Virus record (IMG/VR): IMGVR_UViG_3300037608_000038
Location: 1 to 40,131 of that record
Length of the DNA stretch: 40,131 nucleotides
From: a virus
Lineage: Duplodnaviria; Caudoviricetes
Direction: 5' to 3' (one strand)
Shown here: one piece after another, positions 19,967-39,517 of the stretch
How positions within the stretch are numbered: position 1 is the stretch's first letter
How the letters are laid out: every line of letters starts with the position of its first letter
The notes under the pieces: model-generated
What the model saw: only the letters and a program-made list of their open reading frames with translations
Told to the model about the DNA's origin: nothing
The model's database searches: none
Translations under genes and position numbers: made by a program

Positions 19967-20461
19967 TTAGGATCCGGCTGTAATATAAACCGCAACGGTG
20001 TCGGCAGCGTCAATATCATCTGCCACAGCAAAGCCAAGAGGCTTATGAGTGGAAGCAGTACCGGCGGCCATCCTATCTACCACACCGTCCAAAGTAGCAT
20101 GGAGAATTACCGCATCTCCTTTGACGATATCATCCCCCGCGTCAGTAGCTACAGCAGAGTGATAACCACGCACTTGGATCCATCCATAATAGGACGCAGT
20201 AATGGCGCCTATGCCGACTCCTGCGGCAAAGTTTTGTTTGGAATCTGATATATCGGAAGTTACCTGCCCTCCATAGACGTCGACATATGACAGCGCTGTC
20301 CCGTTGGCTACGGTTGTGTCAGAGGCGGTCTGAACATACTTAAAGACACGCAGAACATTAGTGGCATCAATTACATGCCGCAGCATACCAACTTCATCTT
20401 TTGCGGCAGAATCGTTGGCGGTCAGTTCTGTGTTAAAAAGGACCCCATATAAGTTACCCAT
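19967..20461 (-). CDS. Putative capsid cement / decoration protein
   Basis: Directly after MCP; FKYVQ, YYGWIQVRG and GFAVA motifs. Confidence 0.6.
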   Translation of the reverse strand: MGNLYGVLFNTELTANDSAAKDEVGMLRHVIDATNVLRVFKYVQTASDTTVANGTALSYVDVYGGQVTSDISDSKQNFAAGVGIGAITASYYGWIQVRGYHSAVATDAGDDIVKGDAVILHATLDGVVDRMAAGTASTHKPLGFAVADDIDAADTVAVYITAGS

Positions 20462-20486
20462 TATCTTCAGCTCCTTTCTTTATATT

Positions 20487-21431
20487 TTAGGTCGTAATAC
20501 TAACAATGCGACCTTGGTACCGGCAGTTAGAGCAAGCTAGCTGACCCTTCCAGATAAATTGTCCTACGGCTACATCCTGGTTAAGAGGCTCTTTCCAGCC
20601 GGTCCATTTGGGACTTTCATACCCCTTGAGGGGATGCAGCTTGAGATAGGTTTGGTTCAGGAAAAACATCTGGCCGGTCGGAGTTTGGGCATCGACTATA
20701 ATCTTTGCGCTGTTAAATTTGATGTGCTCAAAGCCATAGTCAATACTGGACTTATTGGAATCCGAACGGATGGTAGGAGTAGCAAGCTCCCAGAGATCGT
20801 CCCATACATCTTGAGTGGTGATAATCAGTTGCGGCTTTTCTTCCCCGTCAGTCAGATCGCCATACATGGACTGCATTGCAGGCCAGCTGATGTAATCGCC
20901 TAATGAGGTATACTTTGCCTTATTCCAGGTGTAAGTGCCGCGGGCAAGCCCTCCATATGTGGCGATGTTGGTGCCATCATCAACAGCAGATTTTAACCCT
21001 GTCATTTCTTTGTTGCCGGTTCCGGTTCCGTCTGCAAATATACCGGAGGTAAGCAGATAAGACATCGATTTCCTGCCATTGTTCAGCTTATGGTTAAGCA
21101 GGTTCACAATGGCCTCTTTACCTTGGTTTTTATCTTTATCGTCCCCGGTAATGACAATAGAAACATAACTATCCACCCATTCAAATTCCAGGTGAGTGGC
21201 AGTCTCAACATTGTTGGTCAGGAAGGTGTCGGACCCCCTATACCAGCCACGGTTGGAGTTAAGCGCATACTCAACGGGGATCTGGAGCTTGGTACCGGCG
21301 TACCCGGTCTCTTGCTTGCTCTTAAATTCTTTTAAGGTGGGCGTAGCGTTGAAAATGTTGTCTATGACCTTTTTTTGTACTGCTTCATTAGTCAACGCAT
21401 TTAAGGTGTCAACGAATGACATGATATACAC
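20487..21431 (-). CDS. Major capsid protein
   Basis: IDNIFNATP, GIFADGTG..KEMTGL...V, P.LIITT, FFLN..YL.L; 314 aa; follows the scaffold. Confidence 0.85.
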   Translation of the reverse strand: MYIMSFVDTLNALTNEAVQKKVIDNIFNATPTLKEFKSKQETGYAGTKLQIPVEYALNSNRGWYRGSDTFLTNNVETATHLEFEWVDSYVSIVITGDDKDKNQGKEAIVNLLNHKLNNGRKSMSYLLTSGIFADGTGTGNKEMTGLKSAVDDGTNIATYGGLARGTYTWNKAKYTSLGDYISWPAMQSMYGDLTDGEEKPQLIITTQDVWDDLWELATPTIRSDSNKSSIDYGFEHIKFNSAKIIVDAQTPTGQMFFLNQTYLKLHPLKGYESPKWTGWKEPLNQDVAVGQFIWKGQLACSNCRYQGRIVSITT

Positions 21432-21476
21432 TTCCTTTCATGTAAAATGAAAACGCCCCCCTTTTTGGGTGAGCGT

Positions 21477-22193
21477 TTATTTTTTAAATACTTCTTCAGC
21501 CGCCGCATTCAGGGCATCCTTCAAACTGTTAAACTTGGGGATCTGGGCGGCTGTCTGTGCTGGTCCCATAACCTTGCCTTTATGCTTCATCTTGAGGTCG
21601 TTCATTACTTTGGACTCCACCCACTTAGCAAACTTATCTTTCAAGATTCCTCGGGTGGCCAGGCTATAGGCGTCATCTAGGGATATAACCTTGCCATTAA
21701 TAGCATACTGCTCCTGGAGATCCTTGAGTGATTCAATATCATCCTGGGTAGGTTCGGCGCCAAAATCAGTTTTCCATAGCTTTTTAACCTGGCCTTCTTC
21801 CCGTTCCATTAGGAGCGCATCAACTCGCGGATCATACTGGTATTGCCCCGGCTGTTGTTGATATTGCTGTTGTTGTTGCTGTTGTTGATATCCTTGCTGG
21901 CCCAAGCCTTCCTCGTAGCTGTTTAGGGTATGACGGACCAAGTACGGTAGGGTTACGTTGTACCTTTTAGCCATATTCTCGAAATCAACAAGGTTAATTC
22001 CTGCTTTTTCCAAGGTTCTGCGTTCCCGGGCTATCCTTTTAGTGACCATCTCATTAACCTGGTCTTGAGTGAATGTAACCGGCTGTGTATCCTGCGGCTG
22101 CAGCTGGCCGTCAACTGCAGTTTCATCCGGCTGTTGTAGGTCGCCGTCACTCGCCTGGTCATCCAGGGGTTGGGTTAAGATATCGTCTTCCAT
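21477..22193 (-). CDS. Scaffolding protein
   Basis: Acidic N-terminus, TFTQDQVNEMVTKRIARE scaffold motif, between portal and MCP. Confidence 0.75.
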   Translation of the reverse strand: MEDDILTQPLDDQASDGDLQQPDETAVDGQLQPQDTQPVTFTQDQVNEMVTKRIARERRTLEKAGINLVDFENMAKRYNVTLPYLVRHTLNSYEEGLGQQGYQQQQQQQQYQQQPGQYQYDPRVDALLMEREEGQVKKLWKTDFGAEPTQDDIESLKDLQEQYAINGKVISLDDAYSLATRGILKDKFAKWVESKVMNDLKMKHKGKVMGPAQTAAQIPKFNSLKDALNAAAEEVFKK

Positions 22194-22282
22194 TTAATAT
22201 AACCTCCCGTTTTAGGGCCGTCGCCCATTTTATCCATGCAGAGTTTTATGCCGTCAGCACGTTTTAGGCATAAAAAAAGGCC

Positions 22283-24118
22283 CTACTGGACCTGCATATT
22301 ACCACCCATTTGTTGAGCCATCTGGGCCTGTTTCATGGCGTTTTGTTCCATCCTGGCTTTTATTTCCTGATAATTCTTAATTCCATAGCGCCGCGCTATT
22401 TCTTCCTGATCGATAACTCCGCTTCGCAATAGGAATTCGGAATCTTGGCGTTCCTGATTCCTGCTCACTGATGCGGCAGCGCCTACCTCCAGGATTATAT
22501 CCAGTTGGACAGACTCGGCCGGAGCCATAACCGGCTGCCCTGTTTCGTCCACCTCTCCGGTGTCCTGCAGATACATCTGCTGCTCTGGGTTATATTGGGA
22601 GTTAGGATAAAATTCCTGATTGCTAAACTCTATAAAGTCATATCTACGAGAGCCTGTTACTACGTCCTGACCCATGGGGTCCATGATTCCTGTGCCGGGC
22701 TCCGGTTGTTGTGCTTTAACCGGGAAATCGCCTGTTATTCTGATCTGCCGGGTGTCGGTATAATATTGTTTCATCCGGCTTATGAATTTCTCGCCAACCT
22801 GCTTGATGGCCACGTCTACGTTCCGGGCTTTTTTACGTATCCTGGCTAGCGCAAATTCCTGGAGTTTGCCAAGAGCTACTCCGGATTGCCCGGAAGATGC
22901 CGGACGTCCCTGTAAGACCTCGCGGATCCCTGAAATAATTTCCAAGTCAGATTTGCAGGTATCCAGCCATTGAAATATTGATTGCGGCCAGGGCGGGGGA
23001 GCATTTACGGTAAAGTCTCCGCCTTTGTTCTTTTTAACCAGGGCTGCTTCCAGATTCTCTAAGGTGTCCTCTTTGATGTTGCACTCATCGTCATAAACTA
23101 TAGTGGTATGGCAGGTGTGGCGAATATAATCATTGAGCCGCGATACTATTTTGTTGATATCGTTGTTAATCTCTATCAGGTATTCCACGTCGCCCTGGGG
23201 AAAGAATGAGTCTGACTGCAAGTAGTTAGGGACCATGACATAGGGGAATTCTCCATCTTCAAAGGGATTATGACAGTCATCCGGGTTAAGCCAAATATCC
23301 CCGGCAATTACTACTTTCTTCCCGTTTGGATATTTCAGGGCTCCTTCCTCACGGGTAACATTCCCCAACTCATCCCGCTCCTCTTTTTCATACACGGAAT
23401 CGTCCTTCATCCAGCATTCCAGCATCTTGGCCCGGTAGTGCACCGCTTCACTAGTCACGTCTGCCGAGAAGTATTCCCTGGCGGTTTCCGTTGATATTTT
23501 GTCCTGGTTGTTTACGGAAATACTTTCGTCTCCCTTGACGTATTTCCCCAGCTTAGGAAATATCTTGCGTATCATCCACAGAGGAGCATCTGTCTCCTGA
23601 ATCATATACCGGCAGGTTTTATGCGAGGTTGCATCCGGATCCGGCCATAGGTGCAGGGGATGGACCACATCAACGACAATTTCGCCATGGGGATAGTTAA
23701 TCATGGGGTCAAAGTAGATTTTCAGCCAGCCCAAACCTGATATAAGGTGGTCCCTTTCGGCTATTTCCAGTTTGGAATTCATCTCTGTAACTTCCCATAT
23801 CCAATCTAGGACCTGTTTGCCTTTTTCTGCCAGCCCGACATCATCACGGGTACGGGGCCAGCAGTCTAATGCGGGTTTGCCGTCAGTCAGCAGAGCTAGC
23901 GCATCCTCTACGGAGGCGAAGATATAGTTCCGTCGGGAGTTAGCTTTGGTGCGGGTCTTTTTCTTGTCCTCATAGGACTTTTTATAGGCCTCATAGCACT
24001 TTTCTATAATGGCTTTGCGGTCTGCGTACGCGGATTTGGAGTTGCTGTACCAGTTTCTAACCAAGTTGACCATGGCTATTTGCTCCTGGGTCTGCTGAAG
24101 GTCATCCAATAGCTTCAC
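22283..24118 (-). CDS. Portal protein (P22-like)
   Basis: 611 aa after TerL; GLGWLK, P.H.WPDP.A, FPYV, ISGI....QG, SG.AL motifs. Confidence 0.85.
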   Translation of the reverse strand: MKLLDDLQQTQEQIAMVNLVRNWYSNSKSAYADRKAIIEKCYEAYKKSYEDKKKTRTKANSRRNYIFASVEDALALLTDGKPALDCWPRTRDDVGLAEKGKQVLDWIWEVTEMNSKLEIAERDHLISGLGWLKIYFDPMINYPHGEIVVDVVHPLHLWPDPDATSHKTCRYMIQETDAPLWMIRKIFPKLGKYVKGDESISVNNQDKISTETAREYFSADVTSEAVHYRAKMLECWMKDDSVYEKEERDELGNVTREEGALKYPNGKKVVIAGDIWLNPDDCHNPFEDGEFPYVMVPNYLQSDSFFPQGDVEYLIEINNDINKIVSRLNDYIRHTCHTTIVYDDECNIKEDTLENLEAALVKKNKGGDFTVNAPPPWPQSIFQWLDTCKSDLEIISGIREVLQGRPASSGQSGVALGKLQEFALARIRKKARNVDVAIKQVGEKFISRMKQYYTDTRQIRITGDFPVKAQQPEPGTGIMDPMGQDVVTGSRRYDFIEFSNQEFYPNSQYNPEQQMYLQDTGEVDETGQPVMAPAESVQLDIILEVGAAASVSRNQERQDSEFLLRSGVIDQEEIARRYGIKNYQEIKARMEQNAMKQAQMAQQMGGNMQVQ

Positions 24119-24136
24119 CTCCCTAAAAGCAAGGGC

Positions 24137-25699
24137 TTAATTTATCCTCACTTTGTGTTTCTCTTTGCTCCCGCCAATCTGGCGGGCTATCCAGTAGTAT
24201 ACCGTACTGTGCGCGAAATGGTCCGGGCCGGAATGCTCCCAGGTATAAATCCCTTTTTCCTCATCGGACATCAGATACATTGACTCCCAGTGGTCTACAT
24301 ATGATTCATTCTTTCTGATTCCGGACCCGCCCACCAACATCGGCTCGTTATGCGGCATATAAAAGTTGATTTTCCCAGCTTGCATATCCTTGATTACCAT
24401 ATCGATGCAGGCCGTCCGTTTAGCTAATACCACCTGCTCAGCGTAATCCACTTCGTAATGGTCCAGGCTCTTAGGTTTTCTAGCGCTCTCCTGGGTATCG
24501 TAATAACAGAGCTTTACTTTGCCCGGGTAATTTTTGCGGAACTCTGTCGCCTTGGTCGTTTCCGGCAACGCGTCTATCACCACTTGCCGAGGCTGGTAGA
24601 GGTTCATCAGAGCTTCCACGTCTGCCCAGCTGCAGGCCAGCATCTTTGTAATCCCGGTATCGTTCCCAATGGTGACATGCAGCCTGCCTCCTACGTCTAT
24701 CCCGAAAAATACGTTGCTTAAATCAGGCTTGTCCGCTCTGATATTCCGGAGGATCATGTCTCTGTTAATCGTCACGTCTGCGCCGATATATGGCTTGCCC
24801 AAATCAAAGTTGTTGAAATATTGCGGGGTTGTTTCCATCTCGTCGTTGATGAGGTCGGCACAGGGTATCCAGGGAGCTATCATCTTGCTCATCCAATAGC
24901 CTGATACTTCCCTGCCGGGATATTTGGCCACCCATTTCCCTTGCCGGCGCATATCGTCTGTTATCTCCCGCCCACAGTGGATGCAGATATACCGTTTGCC
25001 TTCATAATCCACATTTTGGGGCCAGTCTAAATATTGCCAGCCTCCAAAGTTGCCCGTGCCGCATTCACATTTTAGGAACCAATGTTTTTGGTCAGATTTT
25101 AGCCACCACTCATCTACACCGCGTTTAGGAGCCGTAGGGTTGGAAAAAAACCATCTCCTGCCATATGTGCTATGACCTAGACGGCTTTTGTATGTCCCAA
25201 CGACCTCCAGATTGCTTCTGTCGACCTCATCATGCAGCAGGATATCCGCTGTTGTTGAGATGCCTTCTTTCTCACCGTGCGTGCCGCCAAAGTGCCAAAA
25301 TCCGTTTCCGATCTGCTTTAGGGTCATGTTGTTTTTGTCCGGCTTGTATCCGTTTTGCTCCAGCAGTGGGTCTACTTTGGCCGGGACGAATTTGCGCACA
25401 TCATTTTGTAGGGTCGGCAGTGTATAGATGATGTTGTAGCCATATCTCTCGAGGAGCCATATGCATTTTAAAATAAAGATTGTGCTGATTCCTATTTGTG
25501 CCGCCTTGCGGATTGCCATTATCAGACTAAAATCCTCCCAGATGTCCCGCTGAAACTCATGGTCAGCCAGGGTGATTAGCTGCCCTTTTTCATTTTTTTT
25601 GCTTAGCGCCCAAGAGAGTATCGCTCTTTGGGTTTTTAACGTCAAGTAGTGGAGTAGTTCCTCCTTTTGTCTTCGCGTCATGGACGTCATTTTTATCAA
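24137..25699 (-). CDS. terL: Terminase large subunit (GpA-like ATPase)
   Basis: Walker A KAAQIGIS, Walker B LLHDEVD, SNPT coupling motif, GIDVG and DHFAH nuclease motifs. Confidence 0.9.
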   Translation of the reverse strand: MIKMTSMTRRQKEELLHYLTLKTQRAILSWALSKKNEKGQLITLADHEFQRDIWEDFSLIMAIRKAAQIGISTIFILKCIWLLERYGYNIIYTLPTLQNDVRKFVPAKVDPLLEQNGYKPDKNNMTLKQIGNGFWHFGGTHGEKEGISTTADILLHDEVDRSNLEVVGTYKSRLGHSTYGRRWFFSNPTAPKRGVDEWWLKSDQKHWFLKCECGTGNFGGWQYLDWPQNVDYEGKRYICIHCGREITDDMRRQGKWVAKYPGREVSGYWMSKMIAPWIPCADLINDEMETTPQYFNNFDLGKPYIGADVTINRDMILRNIRADKPDLSNVFFGIDVGGRLHVTIGNDTGITKMLACSWADVEALMNLYQPRQVVIDALPETTKATEFRKNYPGKVKLCYYDTQESARKPKSLDHYEVDYAEQVVLAKRTACIDMVIKDMQAGKINFYMPHNEPMLVGGSGIRKNESYVDHWESMYLMSDEEKGIYTWEHSGPDHFAHSTVYYWIARQIGGSKEKHKVRIN

Positions 25700-25736
25700 C
25701 CCCGTATTTTTTGATACTTTGTCCGCGTACGGTGGA

Positions 25737-25895
25737 CTAGTCCTCTATCTCCTCGTCCCTCTTGGCTCTCATTGCCTTGTGTTTTGGCTTTGGTAGCGTT
25801 GTTACCGGCGATTCACCCCTGCCGGCCTTAAAATAAATATACGCTCCGGCAAACATCGCCAAGAGCGTACCTAGTGACCCTATCATATACTCCAT
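25737..25895 (-). CDS. Small single-TM protein (52 aa) between terS and terL
   Basis: Read manually: MEYMIGSLGTLLAMFAGAYIYFK...; GGAGGTG RBS. Confidence 0.55.
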   Translation of the reverse strand: MEYMIGSLGTLLAMFAGAYIYFKAGRGESPVTTLPKPKHKAMRAKRDEEIED

Positions 25896-26362
25896 CATCT
25901 CACCTCCATCAGGGCCTGGATCCGCTTATCCAGCTCCTCATCCGTCAGCTTGCCGACCTCCTCCGTCCTAAAGGGCCTGCCGTCTTTATTTCCAATTTCT
26001 ACCTTATCGGTAAACATGCCCAGATGCTTGCCCATCAGCTCTAGAGCTTTGATTTTATCATTCATTTTGATCTCTATGGACTCTTTACCGGCAGAGATCG
26101 CAAACGCTACTTTGGCAAGCTCTGCCAGCACTTTTTCGACGGTGACAAAATTGCGATTTGCAAATTTGTCGGTGAGCTCTTGGAGTCTTGCCTGTATCTT
26201 GTCATTTCCGGCCAATCTGCAGGCCTTCTCATCTATCGTTTTATTTGTCATATTTTCGCAACCATATGCTTTTCTGTAAGCCTCTCTCTGGGTCAGTCCA
26301 GCAAAAAGGCCTTGTGCATATTTCTCTTGTTTTGCTGTGAGTTTCTCTGCCATATTTGCCAC
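25895..26362 (-). CDS. terS: Terminase small subunit
   Basis: LTAKQEKY...AYRKAY...VLAELAKVAF...DKIKALELMGKHLGMFTDKVE. Confidence 0.9.
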   Translation of the reverse strand: MANMAEKLTAKQEKYAQGLFAGLTQREAYRKAYGCENMTNKTIDEKACRLAGNDKIQARLQELTDKFANRNFVTVEKVLAELAKVAFAISAGKESIEIKMNDKIKALELMGKHLGMFTDKVEIGNKDGRPFRTEEVGKLTDEELDKRIQALMEVR

Positions 26363-26462
26363 CTCCGGACATTATTCCCCATTTATCGTCTATTGTTCGT
26401 GTTTTATAATATTCTCCAGTGATTTTTGAGACAAATATTTTCTAAAATTCGCGTTTTGCGTG

Positions 26463-26499
26463 TTGACATCTGTTTTGATTTTTGGTATACTTAAATCAA
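26463..26499 (+). promoter_or_regulatory. Strong SigA promoter with operator inverted repeat
   Basis: TTGACA-17-TATACT with TG extension; TTGATTT-N11-AAATCAA straddles the -10. Confidence 0.8.
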
Positions 26500-26546
26500 G
26501 ATAAAGGCGCGGGAGAAAAAAGACTCCGGCCAGCAGGGGGTTTAAA

Positions 26547-26783
26547 ATGGATAAATTAGTTATAGGCAAAGATTATGGTCCCATATTTGGACTAAATGCG
26601 GGGACCGGGCAAAAAATGGTATACAACGGTGGTATAAATTGGACAGCTATTAATGGTGATTTGCAGCAGACCGATGATAGCCGCGAGGCCACTGACGAGG
26701 CAATCAATCATTTATATTTAATGCCCGACTACAAAAGCGACACAGAAATAATCGGAAATATTGGCTACAGGAGGGGTAAGTAA
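26547..26783 (+). CDS. Small hypothetical protein (78 aa), Acr candidate
   Basis: First gene after the strong promoter; AGGGGG RBS. Confidence 0.7.
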   Translation: MDKLVIGKDYGPIFGLNAGTGQKMVYNGGINWTAINGDLQQTDDSREATDEAINHLYLMPDYKSDTEIIGNIGYRRGK

Positions 26784-27349
26784 TGAAAAGATATACTAAT
26801 GGGATACCTAGTAGTTTACAGTTTGTTGAGGTCACTGGCGACGATGGTACTTTTTATGATTTGTGCCGCACGTTTGAGGTAAGCAAACATGTTGATATGC
26901 TAACAGCTGGGGGTTATGCCGCAGCGCCCATAAATACAAAAGATGTTCCGCCTTGCCAATTTCGTGATTTCTCCAATGGTTTGGGATCATATGCTGACGC
27001 TATATGGGACAGCGGTAAAGATTTTTACCACTGGGGCGGCAAACGCCCCGGCTCCGGGCGGAAACCGCTGGCAGAAAAGCGTAAGCGATACACCTTCCGG
27101 CTCACCGAGCCGGAACACAAAAAAGCCAGGGAATACATCGCCGAAATGAAGTCCCGGCATACTAAAAGAAAGGAGGAAGAAAAAATGGCTACTTTATATC
27201 ATGGGGATGAGTATTTAGGCGAAATTATCACCAACCAAAGCCTGTCAGTTGAGGACGCTTGCGAGTTACTTAATATTGACATCAACGAAATGGATGAATA
27301 TGGGAATGAATCGGTATGGGACTACGAATTATTTAGATTAGTTTACTAA
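26783..27349 (+). CDS. Multi-domain protein with GGxRxGxGRK / RHH-like DNA-binding segment; an internal RBS and ATG at 27185 gives a 54-aa acidic protein
   Basis: WGGKRPGSGRKP...YTFRLTEPEH...REYI; AAGGAGG before the in-frame ATG at 27185. Confidence 0.65.
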   Translation: MKRYTNGIPSSLQFVEVTGDDGTFYDLCRTFEVSKHVDMLTAGGYAAAPINTKDVPPCQFRDFSNGLGSYADAIWDSGKDFYHWGGKRPGSGRKPLAEKRKRYTFRLTEPEHKKAREYIAEMKSRHTKRKEEEKMATLYHGDEYLGEIITNQSLSVEDACELLNIDINEMDEYGNESVWDYELFRLVY

Positions 27350-27446
27350 AAAAGGAGGAATAAAAAATAGCCGCCACCCCGCAAAGATGACCGGCTATTT
27401 CCCCAACCGACTTGACAAAGGGCAAGCGGTAAGAAGGAGTAAGAAA

Positions 27447-27620
27447 ATGAGAACCACGTACACATCACAATACGGCAAAATTATTAAACAGTGTCCTGGA
27501 CTGCATGAGTATTGGTATCACGGGAAATTAGTAGCGCGTGGGAGCAGTATATCCGCCCCACACCCATCTTGCCCGCCAACACCGGAGGACTGGCAGTTTT
27601 GCCGCTCCCTTAGGGATTAG
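27447..27620 (+). CDS. Small hypothetical protein (57 aa)
   Basis: AAGGAG RBS before MRTTYTS; followed by a terminator at about 27628-27657. Confidence 0.6.
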   Translation: MRTTYTSQYGKIIKQCPGLHEYWYHGKLVARGSSISAPHPSCPPTPEDWQFCRSLRD

Positions 27621-27699
27621 CCCCGGAAGAGAGAGGGGTTTTGTCCTCTCTCTTTTTCTCCTCATAGGTACGATTCTTTTTTTGTTTGTTTGTTTGTTT

Positions 27700-27767
27700 G
27701 TTTTAATCCACACCCATAGGGCGACAATATCTCGCAACTCATTTCAATCCACGCCCATGCAGACGAC
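27700..27767 (-). CRISPR. Degenerate type I-C mini-array: two shortened repeats and a 15-nt spacer
   Basis: GTCGTCTGCATGGGCGTGGATTGAAAT - gagttgcgagatatt - GTCGCCCTATGGGTGTGGATTAAAAC. Confidence 0.75.
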
Positions 27768-27786
27768 AATATTTTATCAGGGCTCC

Positions 27787-27833
27787 GGCAGAAGTCCCCT
27801 CCTTCTATAGGGAGGGGCGGCGGGAGTGTTCAC
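27787..27833 (+). mobile_element. IS200/IS605 fused-end scar
   Basis: ggcaGAAGtcccctccttctatagggaggggcggcgggagtgtTCAC; the GAAG/TCAC pair fits the guide/cleavage rule; 5' part closely matches 5947. Confidence 0.65.
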
Positions 27834-27837
27834 AACT

Positions 27838-27867
27838 CAAGTATAATATACTTGTACATTATGTCAA
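27838..27867 (-). promoter_or_regulatory. Promoter towards the mini-array, with palindromic operator
   Basis: Minus-strand TTGACA-16-TATACT; palindrome caagtat-aat-atacttg at 27838-27854. Confidence 0.6.
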
Positions 27868-27882
27868 TAGGGAGGCGATGAC

Positions 27883-28359
27883 TTGCAACATCGATCTATT
27901 TCGCAACGCCTGGATAGAGCCAAAACTGCCGAGGCGAAAATATCTACCCTGGTAGATTGGTCCAAGTCATGGGAACGGGAAACTATGAGCCTTATCTATA
28001 ACCTGGAGAGAGGCATCCGGACAAAAGATCACGATCTTTTGTGTAAGGCTACAGGCCAGCTTAAGGCAGTGTCCGAAAAACACTTTAAGGCGCTGCCGGA
28101 GGTGTTGACGCGCTTTATAGGCGATAACCCCGCGCCCATCGTGGGGCCTGTACCGCTGCCTCCGGCTGAGGTTGGCAGTATGCCCGAGGGCTATATATCT
28201 GCCCGGGAATGGGCAAAAAGAAACGGCAGAGAGCCAAGGCGCGGGCAAAAAATCCTTACTGACTGGCCGAGTATTGTGCCAGCCGCGAAAAAAGTCCGCA
28301 ATCCACGCGGCGGCGTGGATATATGGGCCGTGCCGGAGGATACGCCATGGCCGTATTAA
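27883..28359 (+). CDS. Protein with C-terminal MerR/excisionase-like HTH (Aca-like candidate)
   Basis: YISAREWAKRNG...PAAKKV...WAVPEDTPWP; GGGAGG RBS. Confidence 0.65.
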   Translation: MQHRSISQRLDRAKTAEAKISTLVDWSKSWERETMSLIYNLERGIRTKDHDLLCKATGQLKAVSEKHFKALPEVLTRFIGDNPAPIVGPVPLPPAEVGSMPEGYISAREWAKRNGREPRRGQKILTDWPSIVPAAKKVRNPRGGVDIWAVPEDTPWPY

Positions 28360-28380
28360 GAGAAGTCAGGCGGAGGAGGA

Positions 28381-28408
28381 CAAGTCCCCGCCCTTAGTGG
28401 AGGAGGAT
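28381..28408 (+). mobile_element. Degenerate IS605-like end hairpin
   Basis: caagtccccgcccttagtggaggaggat resembles the other end hairpins. Confidence 0.35.
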
Positions 28409-28420
28409 ATATCGACACTG

Positions 28421-28442
28421 GAGGCTTCGGCCTCTTTTTTTT
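28421..28442 (+). terminator. Intrinsic terminator
   Basis: gaggcttcggcctc plus a run of 8 T. Confidence 0.85.
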
Positions 28443-28452
28443 CGGGCAGGGC

Positions 28453-28485
28453 ATTTCAATCCACGCCCTCGCAGGGGGGCCGGAC
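28453..28485 (-). CRISPR. Solitary type I-C-like repeat just downstream of the late promoter
   Basis: GTCCGGCCCCCCTGCGAGGGCGTGGATTGAAAT; intact 3' handle, imperfect stem. Confidence 0.7.
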
Positions 28486-28513
28486 GAAGGAGTCCTTTGC
28501 AATCTTCCACACC

Positions 28514-28551
28514 TATAGTATACAATTTTTTTGTGTGCATTTGTGTGCAAT
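28514..28551 (-). promoter_or_regulatory. Probable late promoter
   Basis: TGCACACAAA direct repeat (x2) then TATACT, immediately after the ArpU/RinA-like gene. Confidence 0.55.
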
Positions 28552-28553
28552 CT

Positions 28554-28940
28554 TTATATTATCTGCTTTAATATTTGATTGTGTATGTAGTGTATCTGCC
28601 TCCAGCTATAACTCATCTGTACGCATATAGCTTCCCACCGTAACCCCTCGATGTACCTTAGCCTCATCAAAAGTCTTTTGTCAACCGGCAGACAGCTTAT
28701 ACAATCCTCTATATCTGCCCTTAGATTTATCATTTTCCACATGCTCTTATTGAGTACTTCGACAAGATCCACTATCTTTGCCACAGTATCAGCCATACGG
28801 TCCGGTCTTCCGTTCCCTTTTGGCGTCCCGTCAAGTTTAGGCGTAGCCAATAGGCTTGTCCTTAATCCTTCTATTTCCTGCTCTATTACTTCTATTTCCC
28901 TTTTTAAGTGGCGGTATTGTCTTAGTTCTTCTTTTTTCAA
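28554..28940 (-). CDS. ArpU/RinA-like (DUF1492) late transcriptional activator
   Basis: KEELRQY...LMRLRYIEGLRWEAICVQMSYSWRQIHYIH sigma4-like HTH; last early gene. Confidence 0.85.
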   Translation of the reverse strand: MKKEELRQYRHLKREIEVIEQEIEGLRTSLLATPKLDGTPKGNGRPDRMADTVAKIVDLVEVLNKSMWKMINLRADIEDCISCLPVDKRLLMRLRYIEGLRWEAICVQMSYSWRQIHYIHNQILKQII

Positions 28941-29197
28941 ATTATCACCACCCTTTTAGTAATAAGATCAACATACTGGAACGATACTCTGTATTGCCCC
29001 CTCTTCCCGTCTTTCGTCTGCGCCGTCATCTCTACTACCACAAAGGAGGGAGTCTTCTGGATTATTACCGCCTGACGAGTTATGCGGTTCTTGTTGTTTT
29101 GTCCTTTTATGTAAGATATTTTGATTGTTCTGCCTTTTCCGGGTACTTGGCGGTAAGCATCCAGTATTGTTTTAGGTGTGTATATTTTGTCTTCCAT
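28937..29197 (-). CDS. Hypothetical protein
   Basis: ORF in the early operon. Confidence 0.6.
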   Translation of the reverse strand: MEDKIYTPKTILDAYRQVPGKGRTIKISYIKGQNNKNRITRQAVIIQKTPSFVVVEMTAQTKDGKRGQYRVSFQYVDLITKRVVII

Positions 29198-29198
29198 A

Positions 29199-29627
29199 TC
29201 ACATCACCACTACCCCGTCTATCCTTGGGTTTAATATAACGTCAAGCCCGTATATCTTTCTGCCTTCTGGGCCATGTAACTCAAGTGGCATATTGAAACG
29301 CATATCCTCATAAATCTCGATATCCAACTGCCTCATTTTGTCGTACCCCATTATGATCGTTTTGGGTTGTTTGTTAGTGCTACGATATATGTCTTTGTAA
29401 AGTTGCTTTATTAAGTCTGCCACTTTTGTTGGGTCAATTACTACCCGAGAAAAAGAAACCTCTTCAGCGTAATACTCTTCGATAAATTTGTATTTTATCA
29501 GCTTTTTTATAATCCATCTGATATATTTGCCGTATTTTGTAAGCACCGAACCATTTATTGTATATACTCCTGGCACAAAAACAGATGTCGTATTTTTAGT
29601 AATATGATAATTGATTATTTTTTCCAT
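29199..29627 (-). CDS. Hypothetical protein
   Basis: GAGGAGG RBS. Confidence 0.6.
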   Translation of the reverse strand: MEKIINYHITKNTTSVFVPGVYTINGSVLTKYGKYIRWIIKKLIKYKFIEEYYAEEVSFSRVVIDPTKVADLIKQLYKDIYRSTNKQPKTIIMGYDKMRQLDIEIYEDMRFNMPLELHGPEGRKIYGLDVILNPRIDGVVVM

Positions 29628-29649
29628 CCTCTACGCCTCCTCTTGATAT

Positions 29650-30192
29650 TTACTGATTACCCCATTCTTGTTTTAGTCTCTCCAGCTCGTCAGGCGGAAG
29701 CGTTTCTATTCCTAGTTCCTTTGCCTCTATGACTATCTCGCTAATCAATATCCACATGGCGCGTGTGTCATATACCGAGCTTCCGTAATACGCTACAATC
29801 TTGGCGCATCCTTCTATTTTGCAGTTGTCCATTTGTTCAGCAAACCAGCCCAGCCCCCGGGCGTTCCATACCTTGATAAACTGTTCTGCCGCTTCCGCTT
29901 TTACCGCCAGCATTTCGAATTGTCCGACTTGGCGTATCGCTCTTTTATATACCTCTTCTTTTGTTGTTCGTATAACTTCGGCTATTTTCTGACATATAAC
30001 CCAGCAATAATCATTAGCTTCCAGGCTCCTTTTCTGCCTGTATTGCTTAATTTCTACCGCCAATTCTTTGCCTTTCGATATGATCTCTTTTGCTTCTGAT
30101 ATGTCTATTTTATGGAGATCGGTAGATAAAACAACCTCTGCTTTGCCTGATTCATTGTACTGGAGTTTTATTCCATTAGCTTTGATTTGCAT
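29650..30192 (-). CDS. NinB-like recombination accessory protein
   Basis: KRSLEANDYCW...YYGSSVYDT..M..LI...V.EAKELGIETL. Confidence 0.7.
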   Translation of the reverse strand: MQIKANGIKLQYNESGKAEVVLSTDLHKIDISEAKEIISKGKELAVEIKQYRQKRSLEANDYCWVICQKIAEVIRTTKEEVYKRAIRQVGQFEMLAVKAEAAEQFIKVWNARGLGWFAEQMDNCKIEGCAKIVAYYGSSVYDTRAMWILISEIVIEAKELGIETLPPDELERLKQEWGNQ

Positions 30193-30231
30193 ATCTACCT
30201 CACTCCTTCACCCGTTCTTTGAACTGTGCAC

Positions 30232-30396
30232 CTAATCGTCTTCTCCTCTGGCCAGGATGATGTAGCAGCGGCAGTCACATTTCTTACAAACCATTAGGCC
30301 ATCCTGATCCCAATTATCACGAGTATCTATGTTTAATGTTCCGCAATTTGGGCAGTAACTTGTTGACTGAGGATATCCCGTAACTGTTGTAGCCAT
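30232..30396 (-). CDS. Small Zn-ribbon protein (54 aa)
   Basis: Read manually; CPNCG and CKKC motifs; GGAGG RBS. Confidence 0.6.
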   Translation of the reverse strand: MATTVTGYPQSTSYCPNCGTLNIDTRDNWDQDGLMVCKKCDCRCYIILARGEDD

Positions 30397-30428
30397 ATAA
30401 TTCCTCCATTTCTGTAATACGCAATATT

Positions 30429-31676
30429 TTAATCAAAAGCGCAAGGCCTTAATTCCAACGCCCAGGTCAGTTGTTCGTCAAGTTCACCCCCGTCTAATTC
30501 AGCAAATGCATCAATTATAGTGGGTCTTGCATATTTTTTATTTGTACGGAGCTTTACAATTTCTTTTGCCATGCCGTACTTCATCACTGCTTCCCAGCGT
30601 GATTGGTGCGTCTGCCGTAGCACCGCCATGTGACTGTTTTTGCGTCCATAATCGGTAAAGCAACCGATGCAGCCGTTGCGAGGTATCTTACAAATATTGC
30701 CTTTGCTATCTCTATATGTCAGGTCATACAACGGAGAATAGGGTACATCATATTTCCGGATATACTCCCAAATATCGTTGTCAGTCCATATGGATAACGG
30801 ATTACAGTGATAAAATGGCGTATCTATATATTTGCGGCTTGATTTGAAAAGATAGCCACGCGTGCAGAAGTTTATTTTACGCGAATGGCTTTCGGCAGCC
30901 ATAAGGCCTTTGAATATGACGTCAATCTTAATCCCGGCCTGTATGCGCTCAGAAGGTTCTTTTTTGAGGATATCGCAGCAGGCTTGCGATATCTTAGTTC
31001 TGCGAAGAACAGCATAATACGCTTTTAATTCCTCTTTTTCGCTCGCACTTTCTGAAAACTTTAAAAAGCAGTCGATATTAATTCGCCGTGCCTTGAGTTT
31101 TGATGCTGCTTTACCGAGTATGGGATATCCGTACTGATCAACGCAGTACCAGTAACTTTTGATTGTGCCCTTTTTCCAAACGAGACCATTTGCGTAGAAC
31201 TTATCTTTCAGGTGCTGCGGGCAGGCTCGTTCAAGTGATTTAGTTGTTTTTAATTTACCATCCGCCTTAAGCACCTTACCGATGTTCCCCGTCTCAATAA
31301 GCCATTCAAGAATTTCGACCTGTGCTGCGTATTTATATTCGTCACGCTCAACCCGGGCAGGCGTAGCTTCGTAAAAGTTATCTCCACCCCACTCCTTACC
31401 AATCTGTCGGGCAAACTTCAAGCTTTCGGGGTACTCTACTCCTGTATTTCCGAATATAATTGCGGGTGTTTGTTCAGGGAAATGTGTCCTAATCAGATGC
31501 CATAAAACGGTGCTATCCTTGCCGCCTGAAAACGCAATTGCCGCTCTGGACTGACAGACTTCAAACCCGCTTTTTATTGCCTCAACTGCTTTCTGAATCT
31601 TGTAATCAAGGGGCTTCTTTTGTTCTATAGATAGCTCTTTAAATTTCATGTAACCCATTTTCTCATTCCTTTTCAT
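30429..31676 (-). CDS. PAPS-reductase-family (adenine nucleotide alpha-hydrolase) Fe-S protein
   Basis: AFSGGKDS PP-loop, NTGVEYPE, CCDILKKEP, PLSIWT..DIWEYI, RNGCIGC. Confidence 0.9.
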   Translation of the reverse strand: MKRNEKMGYMKFKELSIEQKKPLDYKIQKAVEAIKSGFEVCQSRAAIAFSGGKDSTVLWHLIRTHFPEQTPAIIFGNTGVEYPESLKFARQIGKEWGGDNFYEATPARVERDEYKYAAQVEILEWLIETGNIGKVLKADGKLKTTKSLERACPQHLKDKFYANGLVWKKGTIKSYWYCVDQYGYPILGKAASKLKARRINIDCFLKFSESASEKEELKAYYAVLRRTKISQACCDILKKEPSERIQAGIKIDVIFKGLMAAESHSRKINFCTRGYLFKSSRKYIDTPFYHCNPLSIWTDNDIWEYIRKYDVPYSPLYDLTYRDSKGNICKIPRNGCIGCFTDYGRKNSHMAVLRQTHQSRWEAVMKYGMAKEIVKLRTNKKYARPTIIDAFAELDGGELDEQLTWALELRPCAFD

Positions 31677-31834
31677 CGCATTTTTTTTGTATTAAATATC
31701 TTTCTTCCGTCTCCCCTTGCTCGCCCCACGTATCACTCGGGGAGTCGTGTTTCTGTGGCAGTAATCGCTATATTCAACCGCCTGCCGCCGTGCCTTTTTT
31801 ATGCGGTCTGCTGTGGCCAACTGTTTGATTAAGT

Positions 31835-32116
31835 CTATGATTGATTGAGCGTGCATAGTTTTTCCATCGCTTCTTCAAACGAGTAACCTAATGGTTCCAT
31901 AGATTCCTGGTCGCTATGAAACGCGTATCCGCCTCCTGGGCCACACATTTCCATTGCCGATTCAAGCTGTTCCCACCAAACCTCAACATTTGTATGCCCT
32001 AATTCCTCAAGAGCTTTTTTGATTTTCTTTTGTTTAGGAGATGCATTAACTTTGTCTACCCAATAACCCATAACAATACTCCTTTCTTTGAAGTGCGACT
32101 TAAAAACCGTTATCAC
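31835..32116 (-). CDS. Hypothetical protein (likely start MGYWVD)
   Basis: AAAGGAG RBS before the internal Met. Confidence 0.6.
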   Translation of the reverse strand: MITVFKSHFKERSIVMGYWVDKVNASPKQKKIKKALEELGHTNVEVWWEQLESAMEMCGPGGGYAFHSDQESMEPLGYSFEEAMEKLCTLNQS

Positions 32117-32255
32117 AGCAAGTCATAAAACGCAGTTTTGCACTCACCGCAAAAGTGTATATTTTGATTTTCGTCATGCTCGTTTTTCGCAGACGGAACA
32201 AACGACTCTTTATCATATGGGAATAATGCTCTTTGTTGGGGAGGTAGAACCTCAA

Positions 32256-32333
32256 TTGCTCTCATACAAGGCTGAAAGTGCCGGTAGAGAGTTTGTTGCT
32301 GTCAACCCCGCCTACACCAGTCAGGACTGTTCA
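32256..32333 (+). pseudogene. tnpB: TnpB (IS605 OrfB) fragment
   Basis: Translates as LLSYKAESAGREFVAVNPAYTSQDCS, the L.YKA...G.....V.P.YTSQ.CS motif before the TnpB Zn finger. Confidence 0.8.
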
Positions 32334-32355
32334 CCTGCAATTTTTCTCCTGCTCA

Positions 32356-32796
32356 TCAGTTCTCCTGCTCATCAGAGTACTGCTGAAACATCTCTGCATC
32401 TGCATCGGACAGAATTACATTCCCAACGATACGGATGTTCTCACATTTGCGCAAATCTCTTCTTCCACTATAATTAGCCGACGACCTCACGCGCCAAGAA
32501 TTTAAAAATTCATCGAAAACGATATATCCCATGCATTCATTTGCACCCATTGATTCACTGTATGATATTAAGTCAAATTCATACAGTAATTCGTTGCCAA
32601 TCTTAATTCCAGTGTTACGGCATATTGTGTAAGGGTTAACCTCTATCCATTCAGTATGTGCAGTAGGTTCATCCGGATTTGGCTGTGATATGCACGGGAT
32701 TTTCCCATATCTCATGTGCAAATTACCGCATACCACGAAATCTTCATCCGTCAATCCTTTAACCGTGTATTTTTCAGGTACAAATTCGCTGTTCAT
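32356..32796 (-). CDS. YopX-like protein
   Basis: EVNPYTICRNTG...LYEFDLI...IVGNV motif. Confidence 0.65.
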   Translation of the reverse strand: MNSEFVPEKYTVKGLTDEDFVVCGNLHMRYGKIPCISQPNPDEPTAHTEWIEVNPYTICRNTGIKIGNELLYEFDLISYSESMGANECMGYIVFDEFLNSWRVRSSANYSGRRDLRKCENIRIVGNVILSDADAEMFQQYSDEQEN

Positions 32797-32828
32797 TTTT
32801 CTTCCTCACTTTCTTTACTGCACTAAAT

Positions 32829-33077
32829 TTAACCTTCCAGCAGGGCGCAAGCATGGAGGAAATAATCCTCCTCTCGGACTTGGCCGCCACTGTTTAAAAA
32901 CTCTTGGATGATAAGCCATATGGTTTCATCCCAGCATGAGATCCTATTACATAAATCCGGGTGCAGTTTCATAGCAGTGATTGCGTTTCGGAAAGCTGAC
33001 GGCGGTACAATATCGCCCAGCGCCTTTTCAAATGAGTCTGCAATGGCTTGATAGTCTTTCAACTTTGTGGTACCCAT
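32829..33077 (-). CDS. Hypothetical protein
   Basis: AAGGAGG RBS. Confidence 0.6.
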   Translation of the reverse strand: MGTTKLKDYQAIADSFEKALGDIVPPSAFRNAITAMKLHPDLCNRISCWDETIWLIIQEFLNSGGQVREEDYFLHACALLEG

Positions 33078-33127
33078 TCTCTATTCCTCCTTTATTTCTA
33101 TGATGTGTGTTATATAACAGTTCTTCC

Positions 33128-33157
33128 CTACCCACCACCTAAGAGGCAAGGGCTTCC
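33128..33157 (-). mobile_element. Truncated IS605 right-end hairpin; the roughly 150-nt non-coding region upstream may be an omegaRNA relic
   Basis: gaagcccttgcctcttaggtggtgggtag, closely similar to 298-326. Confidence 0.5.
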
Positions 33158-33310
33158 GGGCGCGCTTACTTTTCTGCCAAACGTGTGTACGCTTCTCTAG
33201 AGCCTGTCTGTTGGCACGAACGTCCGCTGCCATAAACTTATACTACCTATGCCCGTTTCGTGTCACCAGAGCCATCCTGGACAGTCTGGAGGGGTTTGGT
33301 GGTGGTGTGT

Positions 33311-33724
33311 CTATTCCTCCTCTTCAAAAATTATACCTGGGTACTTTTTAAGTAATAATTTCACCTTAAGCCTATACATGCTTGTTTTAAAGTTCTTTGA
33401 CGGTTTAACATCAATCACCACGATCCGCCCGTCAGGGTAGGTAATCCTAAAGTCTGCTCTGTACTTTATCGCTCTTACCGGTCTGCCGTCAGGGCGTTTA
33501 TATTTTTCCTGCAGTATATATTCCGGCTGTAGTTCAAGACTCACTATCTCTCCGGCCATCAGCATTAGTTTTAGTTCTGCGTAGCGGTTAGCCTCTTTTG
33601 CGCTGTCAAATTTGATGCCGTCTAATTCTGTCTTTTGGGATTTATATTTTGATTCGGCTGGGACCTCGAAGCCTAATTCCCGAGCCTGTTTCGGTGTGAG
33701 CGTTAGCATCTTGTCACCCCTCAA
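33311..33724 (-). CDS. DUF1064 (PD-(D/E)xK endonuclease-like) protein
   Basis: SKY...KTELDGIKFDS.KEA.RY...LELQP...YRADF...VIDVK. Confidence 0.85.
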   Translation of the reverse strand: MRGDKMLTLTPKQARELGFEVPAESKYKSQKTELDGIKFDSAKEANRYAELKLMLMAGEIVSLELQPEYILQEKYKRPDGRPVRAIKYRADFRITYPDGRIVVIDVKPSKNFKTSMYRLKVKLLLKKYPGIIFEEEE

Positions 33725-35028
33725 TCATCCTGATATTTAACTTCTTTTCCAAAATTACTCACTGCGGAATAATAAAATCTCATGGTTTGAGGGTCCATCT
33801 TTAGATTTACAGTTCCTACTGGGCCATTACGTTGCTTTGCGATGATTATTTCCGCTATTCCGTCACTTTCTCGCTTGTTCTCGCGGTAGTAATCGTCTCG
33901 GTGGATAAACATTACGATATCAGCATCCTGCTCCAGCGATCCGGAATCTCTTAAGTCCGACAAGGCCGGGCGTTTATTGCCACGTTTTTCATTATCCCGA
34001 TTAAGTTGCGATAAGCATATGATCGGTATTTGCAATTCTTTTGCCAATCCCTTTAGTCCCCGGCTTATCCCTGATATTTCCTGCTCCCGATTCTTACCCG
34101 GACCTGACATAAGCCCCACGTAATCGATTATCATCAAGTCTAGTCCATTTACCGCCTTTATCCTTTTGGCTCTAGCCCGTATCTCTGGCAGCGTCTTGGC
34201 CGTCTCGTCCATATAGAGCGGTATTTTATATAATTTGCCAGCGGAATCACACACCTTTGCCCACTCGTTACTGTCCAGATTGCCAAGTTTTACCCTTACA
34301 CCGCTTGTATTTGAGTGGTTAATTAACATCCGCCTAAGTAGCTGCTTTGCTGTCATTTCCAGGGTTACAGCAAATACTTTTTTGCCTCTTATAGCATTCT
34401 CTTGCCCTATCTGTAAGGCAAGACTGGTTTTACCCATACTTGGCCGAGCTGCTAGTATTATAAAGTCCCCAGCCTGTAGTCCCATAAGGTAGTTGTCTAG
34501 TGGGTTTATGTATGTCATTATCCCGGTTGGCTGCCCCGTTTTTACACTTTCAATTTCATCTACTACTTCTGACATAAGATCTTTAACGCTTACTATTTGC
34601 CCGGACTCGTCAGAGTTTAAAGATAATATTTCTTCCTCGATCTCCGACTTAAAGCCGGAAATATCTTCATACTCCTTCGCTTTGGCTTTGGCTGTAAACT
34701 TATTAAAGGTTTGCAGGCACCTGCGCAGATATGCATTATCCTTGATGAGTTTAATATTTTGTTCAGCGTTGGCCGGATAATAGTTTTTTATTATGGCAGA
34801 CAGCGCTAAGGTTTCTATTTGTCCTCGCAGCTCCTCGTATACTGTGGCCATGGTGATCTCTATTTTTTTGTCTGACAGGGCGCAGATAGCCTTATATATA
34901 CTGCGGTGCTTGGAGTTATATAAGTCATCGGGCTTTAGTAAGGGCTGGATATCGACAATAGCATCAGATTCCATTAGGCACTTTGCTATAATATTTATTT
35001 CAGCCTCCAGGTTGTGGGGTTGTTCCAT
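33721..35028 (-). CDS. dnaB: Replicative DnaB-family helicase
   Basis: AARPSMGKT, IIDY, LSQLNR, LSDLRDSGSLEQDAD, KQRNGP. Confidence 0.95.
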   Translation of the reverse strand: MEQPHNLEAEINIIAKCLMESDAIVDIQPLLKPDDLYNSKHRSIYKAICALSDKKIEITMATVYEELRGQIETLALSAIIKNYYPANAEQNIKLIKDNAYLRRCLQTFNKFTAKAKAKEYEDISGFKSEIEEEILSLNSDESGQIVSVKDLMSEVVDEIESVKTGQPTGIMTYINPLDNYLMGLQAGDFIILAARPSMGKTSLALQIGQENAIRGKKVFAVTLEMTAKQLLRRMLINHSNTSGVRVKLGNLDSNEWAKVCDSAGKLYKIPLYMDETAKTLPEIRARAKRIKAVNGLDLMIIDYVGLMSGPGKNREQEISGISRGLKGLAKELQIPIICLSQLNRDNEKRGNKRPALSDLRDSGSLEQDADIVMFIHRDDYYRENKRESDGIAEIIIAKQRNGPVGTVNLKMDPQTMRFYYSAVSNFGKEVKYQDD

Positions 35029-35788
35029 CTCTTTGCCTCCGCTCCTCGGCTTCCCGTGCATTTTTTAATACCGGATCTTCGTCAGGGGCTCGCGGCTTAT
35101 AAAGCTTAAACCCTTCTTCTTGTACTCTCTTGACAACCCAGTTTAATATGGCTCGATAGTCAGATTTATATTTTTTGCCATTAGCCCCTTTGTAGTTGTC
35201 TAATACCTCTATCAGCCTGTCCGTCATTTCTTTGCCATAAGTGGCGAGCAGTTTCTGGTACTCGTCATTGGTCATGGTCACATATTCGGCAAGTTTAAGG
35301 GGAGATATAGAGGGGTTATTAAGTATATTTACCTTATTGTTTGGTGAAGGTGAAGGTGAAGGTGAGTTGCGGAATTCTTGCGGAATTTCCTGCGGAATTC
35401 TTGCGGAATTTCCTGCGGAATTTCCTGCGGAATTCTTGTTCCTTTTCCGAAATTTATCCTTATTTTTTCTGTCGATATATTGATAAAAGGGCTTATTAAA
35501 GTCCTCCCAATCATGCAGATATATTCCATCTTCTAGCTCATCTATCCACCCACTTTGCACCAATATCTGATACAGTTTACCTAGTTCGCCGGTCCAATAA
35601 AGGGCCTCCTCTATATCCTCAATAGTTGTTGATAGTAAGAGGCCTTTAGGATCTGCGTTATCTAATCCCCATAGCCATAACAGAATTAAATATCCTATGG
35701 CCTGCTGCCGGGTAGTGTTTAATCTGCGGTATAAATCACGTAGTTTTCTGTGGTCCCTAAGTTGTTGATGAACTGATATCCATGCCAC
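35000..35788 (-). CDS. Phage replication initiator
   Basis: MAWI.VH..L..H.K N-terminus, LHDWE, internal iterons, YKSDYRAILNW; upstream of the helicase. Confidence 0.8.
   Translation of the reverse strand: MAWISVHQQLRDHRKLRDLYRRLNTTRQQAIGYLILLWLWGLDNADPKGLLLSTTIEDIEEALYWTGELGKLYQILVQSGWIDELEDGIYLHDWEDFNKPFYQYIDRKNKDKFRKRNKNSAGNSAGNSARIPQEIPQEFRNSPSPSPSPNNKVNILNNPSISPLKLAEYVTMTNDEYQKLLATYGKEMTDRLIEVLDNYKGANGKKYKSDYRAILNWVVKRVQEEGFKLYKPRAPDEDPVLKNAREAEERRQRDGTTPQPGG
35368..35436. repeat. Origin iterons: 6 x TGCGGAATT(CT/TCC)
   Basis: Tandem 11/12-bp repeats inside the initiator gene, next to GGTGAA repeats. Confidence 0.75.
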
Positions 35789-35792
35789 ATAT

Positions 35793-36281: not shown

Positions 36282-36326
36282 GTATCATCTCATCCCTCCT
36301 TCTATCCCCCCCTATGGGGGAGTGTG

Positions 36327-38117: not shown

Positions 38118-38127
38118 TCTCAAACTT

Positions 38128-38613: not shown

Positions 38614-38616
38614 TTT

Positions 38617-39510: not shown

Positions 39511-39517
39511 AATCGCA

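Follow-up and report, generated by a model that had tools for sequence, protein, structure and literature searches.

Phage-encoded mimics of crRNAs are a known class (Racrs in 2023, Cracrs in 2024-2026), and the principle is not new. Racrs, as presented in the available text of Camara-Wilpert et al. (2023; PMC10651486), are phage-borne repeat mimics without cas genes, which are transcribed from a strong promoter, lie next to small unknown ORFs and need no target; a type I-C example, RacrIC1, exists. Cracrs are viral mini-arrays with degenerate repeats and a short spacer. According to the accessible parts of Liu et al. (10.1101/2024.10.29.618823), they are defined by at least nine PAM-proximal matches in common with the host CreR/CreA or with a cas promoter, are predicted to assemble a truncated Cascade and also compete for Cas proteins. 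Host CreR/CreA and regulatory mini-arrays are likewise described with a short spacer and degenerate repeats in the sections available of 10.1101/2023.03.10.532045 and PMC10120712, and the Discussion of the latter proposes terminal-unit duplication and truncation as origins of mini-arrays.

The window analysed here (the whole stretch of DNA) constitutes a complete phage record of 40,131 bp with terminal repeats of 127 nt, and it carries on its minus strand a mini-array which we read as a shrunken, phage-borne mimic of a type I-C array. Because of its repeat anatomy, of two further solitary repeats in the same genome and of the same layout in relatives, its assignment as a phage crRNA mimic of type I-C appears well supported at the level of sequence; that it acts as a Racr-type decoy RNA anti-CRISPR has, in our estimate, about an even chance of being correct. 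The locus resembles Racrs in lying on a mobile element without cas genes and directly behind a promoter, but differs from them in having two repeats only 15 nt apart, each 5-6 nt short and with 5-bp stems, an apparently leader-derived 15-nt spacer and an IS605 miniature in the leader. The mini-array falls outside strict Racr membership, whereas the units at 6021 and 28453 of the same phage are solitary. Since SRUFinder classes matches of less than 90% coverage as partial, the 26-27-nt repeats would probably not be called as SRUs. In common with Cracrs, a short spacer follows a degenerate repeat in a viral genome (15 nt against a host mode of 34), yet it is shorter than the 17-21 nt given for I-F Cracrs in the available text (10.1101/2024.10.29.618823), and the at least nine PAM-proximal matches that define Cracrs were not found in the candidate-host sets searched. 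From CreR/CreA the mini-array differs by its location in a phage at a distance from cas genes and by having no maintained target that we could find. Neither shrunken I-C repeats nor guides duplicated from a leader came up in our literature search; supplements or subscription papers could describe them. RacrIC1 is reportedly the subject of a structural study.

The mini-array and its predicted RNA

Repeat R1 (27741-27767, minus strand) comprises 27 nt with a 5-bp stem containing two G-U pairs and an intact 11-nt handle, and repeat R2 (27700-27725, minus strand) comprises 26 nt with a 5-bp stem containing one G-U pair and a handle with one G>A exchange, in agreement with the first-pass annotation, which had described two repeats with stems of about 5 bp. 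Both stems begin after the first two bases of the repeat, the U-G-G after the cut site is intact in both and, compared with a CGCCC/GGGCG stem, all three changes preserve pairing as G-U; the stem energies in the canonical register are -3.9 kcal/mol for R1 and -5.8 kcal/mol for R2. Of 747 matches to candidate-host I-C repeats, among which overlapping loci were counted repeatedly, 746 measured 32 nt. Because the candidate-host spacers are 31-39 nt long with a mode of 34 (n=489), the leader-homologous 15-nt spacer S1 (27726-27740, minus strand) is under half their length, as had been noted before. The 14-mer handle occurs in three exact copies in the window, and at up to three mismatches five copies were counted against 3.97 expected, which is no enrichment. 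R2 is followed on its 3' side by a low-complexity (AAAC)n/A-rich tail (27670-27699, minus strand), which would constitute the non-targeting 'guide' of the second product. A 10-bp hairpin predicted by folding between the array and a convergent small-ORF operon (27627-27654) has a plus-strand T-run and may be a terminator; it was not among the calls of a terminator scan.

On the decoy reading, host Cas5c would cut the mini-array RNA at the stem bases; in the available account, this enzyme recognises the cut site and the handle and not the loop (PMC8524198). Two cuts would release a 41-nt RNA (11 + 15 + 15) and a second RNA with the (AAAC)n tail. If each Cas7 covers 6 nt, a value stated for type I-F in the available text of PMC10651486, the 41-nt RNA would hold about three fewer Cas7 subunits than a normal crRNA, and Cascade subunits would be sequestered on RNAs without a target; for type I-F, the same text reports that a non-targeting crRNA inhibits through competition. 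Processing of the mini-array RNA is in doubt on the modelled folds, because both canonical stems are mostly unformed in the predicted precursors (probabilities of 0.00-0.13 for R1 and 0.00-0.15 for R2). The R2 stem reaches a predicted 0.85 only after the cut in R1, and a GC-rich insert in the leader pairs with R1 in the predicted fold.

These folds also bear on the possibility, clearly unlikely in our opinion, that the locus is a decaying copy: a former functional Racr would have been duplicated and later have lost its function through the IS605 miniature and C>T drift, which would leave the firm repeat at 6021-6052 as the working Racr. Besides the poor stem formation and the pairing of the insert with R1, the change in the R2 handle speaks for decay, as do the IMG/VR searches, which found the array conserved in no close relative, and the 7-bp stem retained by the solitary repeat (predicted probability 0.86-1.0). 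Decay is countered by a promoter that still matches the consensus, by the perfect R1 handle and the retained pairing of all three stem changes, and by the recurrence of the G>A exchange in handles of unrelated phages (L090, L086), where it likewise affects a second or last repeat; moreover, equilibrium folding leaves out co-transcriptional folding and Cas5c binding.

The first-pass annotation had missed both solitary I-C-like repeats as well as the 56-bp IS605-type insert described below. The near-canonical repeat at 6021-6052 (plus strand) is identical to the closest host repeat at 26 of 32 positions in an ungapped alignment, lies behind an IS605 left end and has a promoter TTGCCT-17-TATAAT upstream, read by eye. 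The other one (28453-28485, minus strand) has 33 nt with a stem out of register and lies behind the HTH gene. Hairpin ends resembling those of IS200/IS605 elements are scattered over the genome (103-143, 298-330, 5944-5990, 28380-28418 and 33130-33156), and the one at 5944-5990 stands directly before the 6021 repeat and may supply its promoter. At 37785-38117 lies an empty IS200/IS605-type element with a plus-strand TTGCCT…TATAAT promoter, whose left end is 79-91% identical to host IS ends; a weak match to HEARO RNA within it (37987-38117, minus strand; E 0.0077, below gathering) has a direct duplication of 17 nt after it, near 38118-38153.

Promoter, leader insert and origin of the spacer

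The mini-array is preceded by a promoter with the -35 hexamer TTGACA (27862-27867, minus strand) and the -10 hexamer TATACT (27840-27845, minus strand) at 16-nt spacing, which lies 72 nt before R1 and was identified as a consensus match only (11 of 12 positions). This promoter (27867-27840) had been annotated as overlapping a palindrome, and the palindrome proved to be perfect, with 8 bp around a 1-nt centre (27838-27854). It extends over the -10 and represents a candidate operator or two back-to-back -10 hexamers (TATACT). It is unique in the genome, with no second copy at fewer than four mismatches; palindromes of this size number seven distinct ones in the genome against 0-3 in 10 shuffles, and no equivalent was seen at the homologous promoter of the viral locus L085. 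A gene running in the opposite direction (27883-28359, plus strand) codes for a protein of 158 aa with a helical N-terminal domain. It had been called an HTH gene, of which the divergent ORF was recovered, but the ORF had no match in Pfam, PHROG or NCBIfam, and the C-terminal winged HTH belongs to a predicted model with a pLDDT of 54-68 and weak fold matches only; fold searches gave no clear match. The protein may repress the mini-array promoter in the lysogen, a putative role like that of Aca repressors, which are HTH proteins that bind an inverted repeat in the acr promoter. Convergent to the array runs an operon of small ORFs (26463-27620, plus strand) under a TTGACA-17-TATACT promoter, which has no family match and represents a candidate acr locus. 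Racrs often lie beside acr genes; the operon includes an acidic ORF of 54 aa (13 D/E, 1 K/R), and family profile searches identified no known Acr near the mini-array. The 188-aa ORF at 26783-27349 (plus strand) resembles a read-through fusion in which an unknown domain is joined to a GGKRPGSGRKP motif, an accompanying basic segment and the acidic 54-aa part, the latter with its own ribosome-binding site at 27185.

The leader from 27838 to R1 spans 71 nt, of which 56 bp (27778-27833, plus strand) appear to be a collapsed, PATE-like miniature of the IS200/IS605 type. The boundaries of this insert were marked before the leader was compared with the spacer. It is bounded on the left by TTTAT (27773-27777) and ends in TTCAC on the right, which are the TAM and TEM of ISGst2 in the available text of 10.1101/2023.03.14.532601, and its GC hairpin is 88% identical over 34 nt to the IS end at 5944. 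The TTTAT/TTCAC bounds and the subterminal-type hairpin are shared with the PATE-like IS200/IS605 elements described in the same text, from which the insert differs in being only 56 bp long with a single hairpin. Related left ends precede a tnpA remnant and the start of tnpB in a host genome (read by eye), and none of 16 loci read contained a close, full-length parent of the insert.

Without the 56-bp insert, the leader is exactly 15 nt long. It then consists of an ancestral first part of 5 nt (27834-27838, minus strand), which is preceded by CTT and identical to positions 1-5 of S1, and a last part of 10 nt (27768-27777, minus strand), whose final 5 nt are the final 5 nt of S1. Because this insert-free leader is identical to S1 at 11 of 15 positions with both ends in register, which 18 of 100,000 shuffles reached, the spacer likely arose by tandem duplication of the 15-nt leader and its repeat, and the array is best read, from its letters, as two copies of a leader-plus-repeat unit and not as an array with an acquired spacer. 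If the join is slid by 3-5 nt, the leader matches S1 at 13 of 15 positions, which none of 3000 any-deletion shuffles reached, but this join does not fit the IS boundaries. The exact history of the leader join has these two alternatives, and in our best reading the duplication holds either way. The insert would have arrived after the duplication; no relative carrying an empty-site allele was found, and S1, as a copy within the array, takes the place of such an allele.

A guide resembling its own leader might also direct host Cascade to the start site of the array, tuning both the array and the divergent HTH promoter, which would couple the counter-defence of the phage to host Cascade levels. 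S1 matches eight of the first nine nucleotides after the -10 in the present allele, the CTT before the leader is a usable PAM of Legionella type I-C (95-99.5% protective in the available part of PMC5602111), and the host locus L467 presented below is a precedent for the geometry. We nevertheless consider such self-regulation very unlikely: the match of the present allele comprises only 9 of 15 positions with a mismatch at position 7, whereas the mismatches of host CreR-like pairs are confined to positions 6, 12 and 18, and none of 68 viral guides had a PAM-flanked run longer than 8 in its own neighbourhood.

Phage host and search for a target

The phage originates from a groundwater metagenome and has genes for a serine integrase, a repressor, a terminase, a portal, a capsid and an M23 lysin, while no cas genes were present among the ORFs scanned or inspected. 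Reads of run X1, possibly the source sample, cover 20200-40131 (the half examined) evenly and without variants. Because a homologue of the divergent gene occurs in Desulfosporosinus and IS ends are in common, the host is probably a Bacillota bacterium: the sole match of the divergent gene among 185,579 species genomes was in Desulfosporosinus sp. SbF1, and the IS end at 37785-37870 shows 79-91% identity to ends in the class of Desulfosporosinus. No convincing match to the phage was found among 489, 1780 and 128 host spacers (best 23/27), and a profile search with the HTH gene matched none of 149 genomes. Queries of IMG/VR with the HTH gene, the spacer pattern, the leader pattern or ORF 26783 yielded no near relatives, and terminase relatives were at most 41% identical and lacked an I-C-like repeat unit. 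INPHARED returned chance-level matches only, the integrase matches were uninformative, and Rfam gave no gathering-level match in the window and chance-level ones only around the mini-array. Elsewhere in the genome, an ORF at 4737-5111 (minus strand) scored above the cut-off for Pfam Acb2_Tad1_hairpin and is a candidate for a sponge protein that counters CBASS or Thoeris signalling. A 59-nt inverted repeat (7356-7414 and 11180-11238; 95% complementary, 3.8 kb apart) encloses most of an ORF of 1133 aa and may delimit an invertible segment, and a 15-nt tandem repeat at 39754-39933 codes for a pentapeptide-repeat protein and is ordinary.

We scanned 126 type I-C loci (1.43 Mb) of Bacillota as candidate hosts. 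The class of Desulfosporosinus contributed 26 of these, a 401-genome sample of the phylum 80 (out of 106 genomes over the cut-off) and a class whose repeat best matches the 6021 unit 20. The first-pass annotation had reported no full match of the spacer within the phage, which was borne out by a best other site of 12/15 without a TTC PAM and by the lack of any PAM-flanked match; its suggestion to look for the spacer next to a TTC PAM in I-C host promoters and competing phages led to no target in the 126 candidate-host loci and 212 viral loci. With seven PAMs, the best PAM-proximal run in the 126 loci was 9, within the range of 7-12 seen with shuffled sequences, and the other three guides of the window performed no better with TTC. 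Among 112 genomes, one contained the PAM plus 11 nt of S1, away from cas loci, and a set of 23 genomes contained none. About 440 metagenome stretches contained the PAM and the full spacer, and in 120 of these that were fetched no cas match was present within flanks of up to 1.5 kb; a copy of handle plus spacer was absent from the viral and metagenome contigs searched. One TTC-flanked match of 14/15 in the genome G084 was rejected as a target, being intergenic beside a transposase in a genome without an I-C array, with about 0.2 such matches expected by a rough estimate.

The scan is able to find guide targets, because it recovered eight host CreR-like pairs. These came from 71 stand-alone repeat-like matches in the first 106 Bacillota I-C loci, and the last 20 loci added none. 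Each guide matches a TTC-flanked site in its own locus over 12-20 nt, with mismatches at positions 6, 12 and 18 only, and the sites lie 17-680 nt before the called start of cas3 or cas5 (L095:3224-3290, L103:8822-8920, L113:8662-8960, L262:7800-7964, L417:6005-6540, L424:5013-5185, L466:10452-10537 and L467:2900-3005; the units of L113 and L262 are close kin). In L467, a TTC PAM is followed by a 17-nt target that lies over the -10 of the unit itself; then come a repeat, a copy of 17 nt with mismatches at positions 6 and 12 over its first 15 nt, and a worn repeat. This is the same geometry of leader, repeat, leader copy and repeat as in the phage mini-array. Among the other loci, L096 contains two I-C cas5 genes 6 kb apart on opposite strands, and L260 has an operon with cas3 downstream of cas7.

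Because L467 shares this geometry, a CreR-type cassette, captured or home-made, is a serious alternative. The phage could have captured such a cassette as a Cracr, the 15-nt guide of which would still steer host Cascade to the host cas or creT promoter, while the RNA would escape self-repression because the phage's own copy of the target is spoiled by CTT in place of TTC, by mismatches and by the IS insert in the seed. In addition to the target-repeat-guide-repeat tandem of L467 with its 17-nt unit and to the CreR-like units in 8 of 106 loci, the two-repeat layout agrees with this, viral Cracr spacers are short as well (17-21 nt for type I-F), and the available text of 10.1101/2024.10.29.618823 predicts Cracr arrays of type I-C. 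The leader-copy layout of L467 with its TTC PAM and the degenerate CreR repeats favour a regulatory ancestry. What speaks against a present function as a Cracr is that S1 has no target in the 126 loci, that PAM plus 11 nt and the handle-plus-spacer copy gave the negative results stated above, and that all 64 viral guides stayed at runs of 12 or less, no better than chance, in 106 host loci, which were mostly not those of their own hosts. We regard a captured cassette as possible, if rather unlikely. The absent target favours the decoy, which is suggestive and not decisive, as the search covered candidate hosts.

Guided interference against a rival phage, a role which viral mini-arrays have according to the available text of PMC11656645, appears highly improbable here: the known competition arrays carry host-identical repeats in that text, whereas the repeats of the mini-array have 26-27 instead of 32 nt and its leader-derived spacer 15 instead of 31-39 nt, and the best match of S1 in the 212 viral loci was 12/15 without TTC.

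Shrunken repeats in other viruses and the decoy reading

Relatives of the divergent gene were found in five viral loci, three of which carry a shrunken repeat upstream on the opposite strand. In L085 this is one repeat of 25 nt, accompanied by a promoter and a terminator; in L086 and L088, which are nearly identical, it is degenerate and 24 nt long. L084 and L087 contain the relative without a shrunken repeat. The guide of L085 had no target in the cas contig of its own host (longest run 8), where the upstream part of the operon is off the contig. In a Desulfosporosinus genome with I-C arrays, a homologous HTH gene faces a single 25-nt repeat with a terminator. The two-repeat pattern with a spacer of 8-24 nt matched only three IMG/VR stretches, two of them shrunken and one with the G>A handle in its second repeat.

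A pattern for single shrunken repeats matched about 220 viral stretches, and the 120 that were fetched contained 54 distinct units, 49 of them solitary. Stems of at least 4 bp were preserved in 28 of 51 distinct shrunken repeats, whereas 2000 shuffles gave 10.9 on average and 21 at most; the repeats are related in sequence and not independent, and the remaining ones include likely chance matches. RNAalifold detected no structure in an alignment which placed the stems out of register. The largest group consists of L135:701-790 and its kin L155, L201, L210 and L240, which have 27-nt repeats with a UUCG loop, hairpin-rich tails and a terminator and are divergent from a gene of the Pfam HTH_7 family. 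Longer arrays, with four and five degenerate I-C repeats separated by spacers of low complexity, were observed in the phage loci L089 and L091 (~1370-1700), and that of L089 faces an HTH-like gene.

The initial proposal of either a Racr or a promoter-silencing guide holds in so far as the locus is an I-C mimic, but the promoter target was not found. Because S1 resembles a diverged leader copy and no promoter target was found, the decoy fits better than the silencer. Against the decoy it counts that Racrs are defined as solitary repeats whereas the mini-array has two, and that CreR-like guides of Bacillota hosts also have degenerate or short repeats.

A broader model, tentative and in our judgement unlikely to hold as a whole, would be that regulatory guides are born without Cas1-Cas2 by tandem duplication of the promoter-proximal leader and one repeat. 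The phage mini-array would represent such a birth, in which the duplicate guide matched its own start site next to a CTT PAM until the IS605 miniature in the seed freed the RNA for anti-CRISPR use, and L467 would be the retained autoregulatory form. I-C repeats of 23-28 nt would then be an overlooked, widespread class of phage Racrs and Cracrs missed by coverage-based searches.

The shrunken I-C repeats, present in about 220 viral stretches and with preserved stems, would define the smallest substrate of Cas5c. The homology of spacer and leader, which is mirrored in a CreR-like unit of a host, offers a testable route to short regulatory guides, and the eight CreR-like guide-target pairs of Bacillota I-C loci are candidates for autoregulation of type I-C systems.
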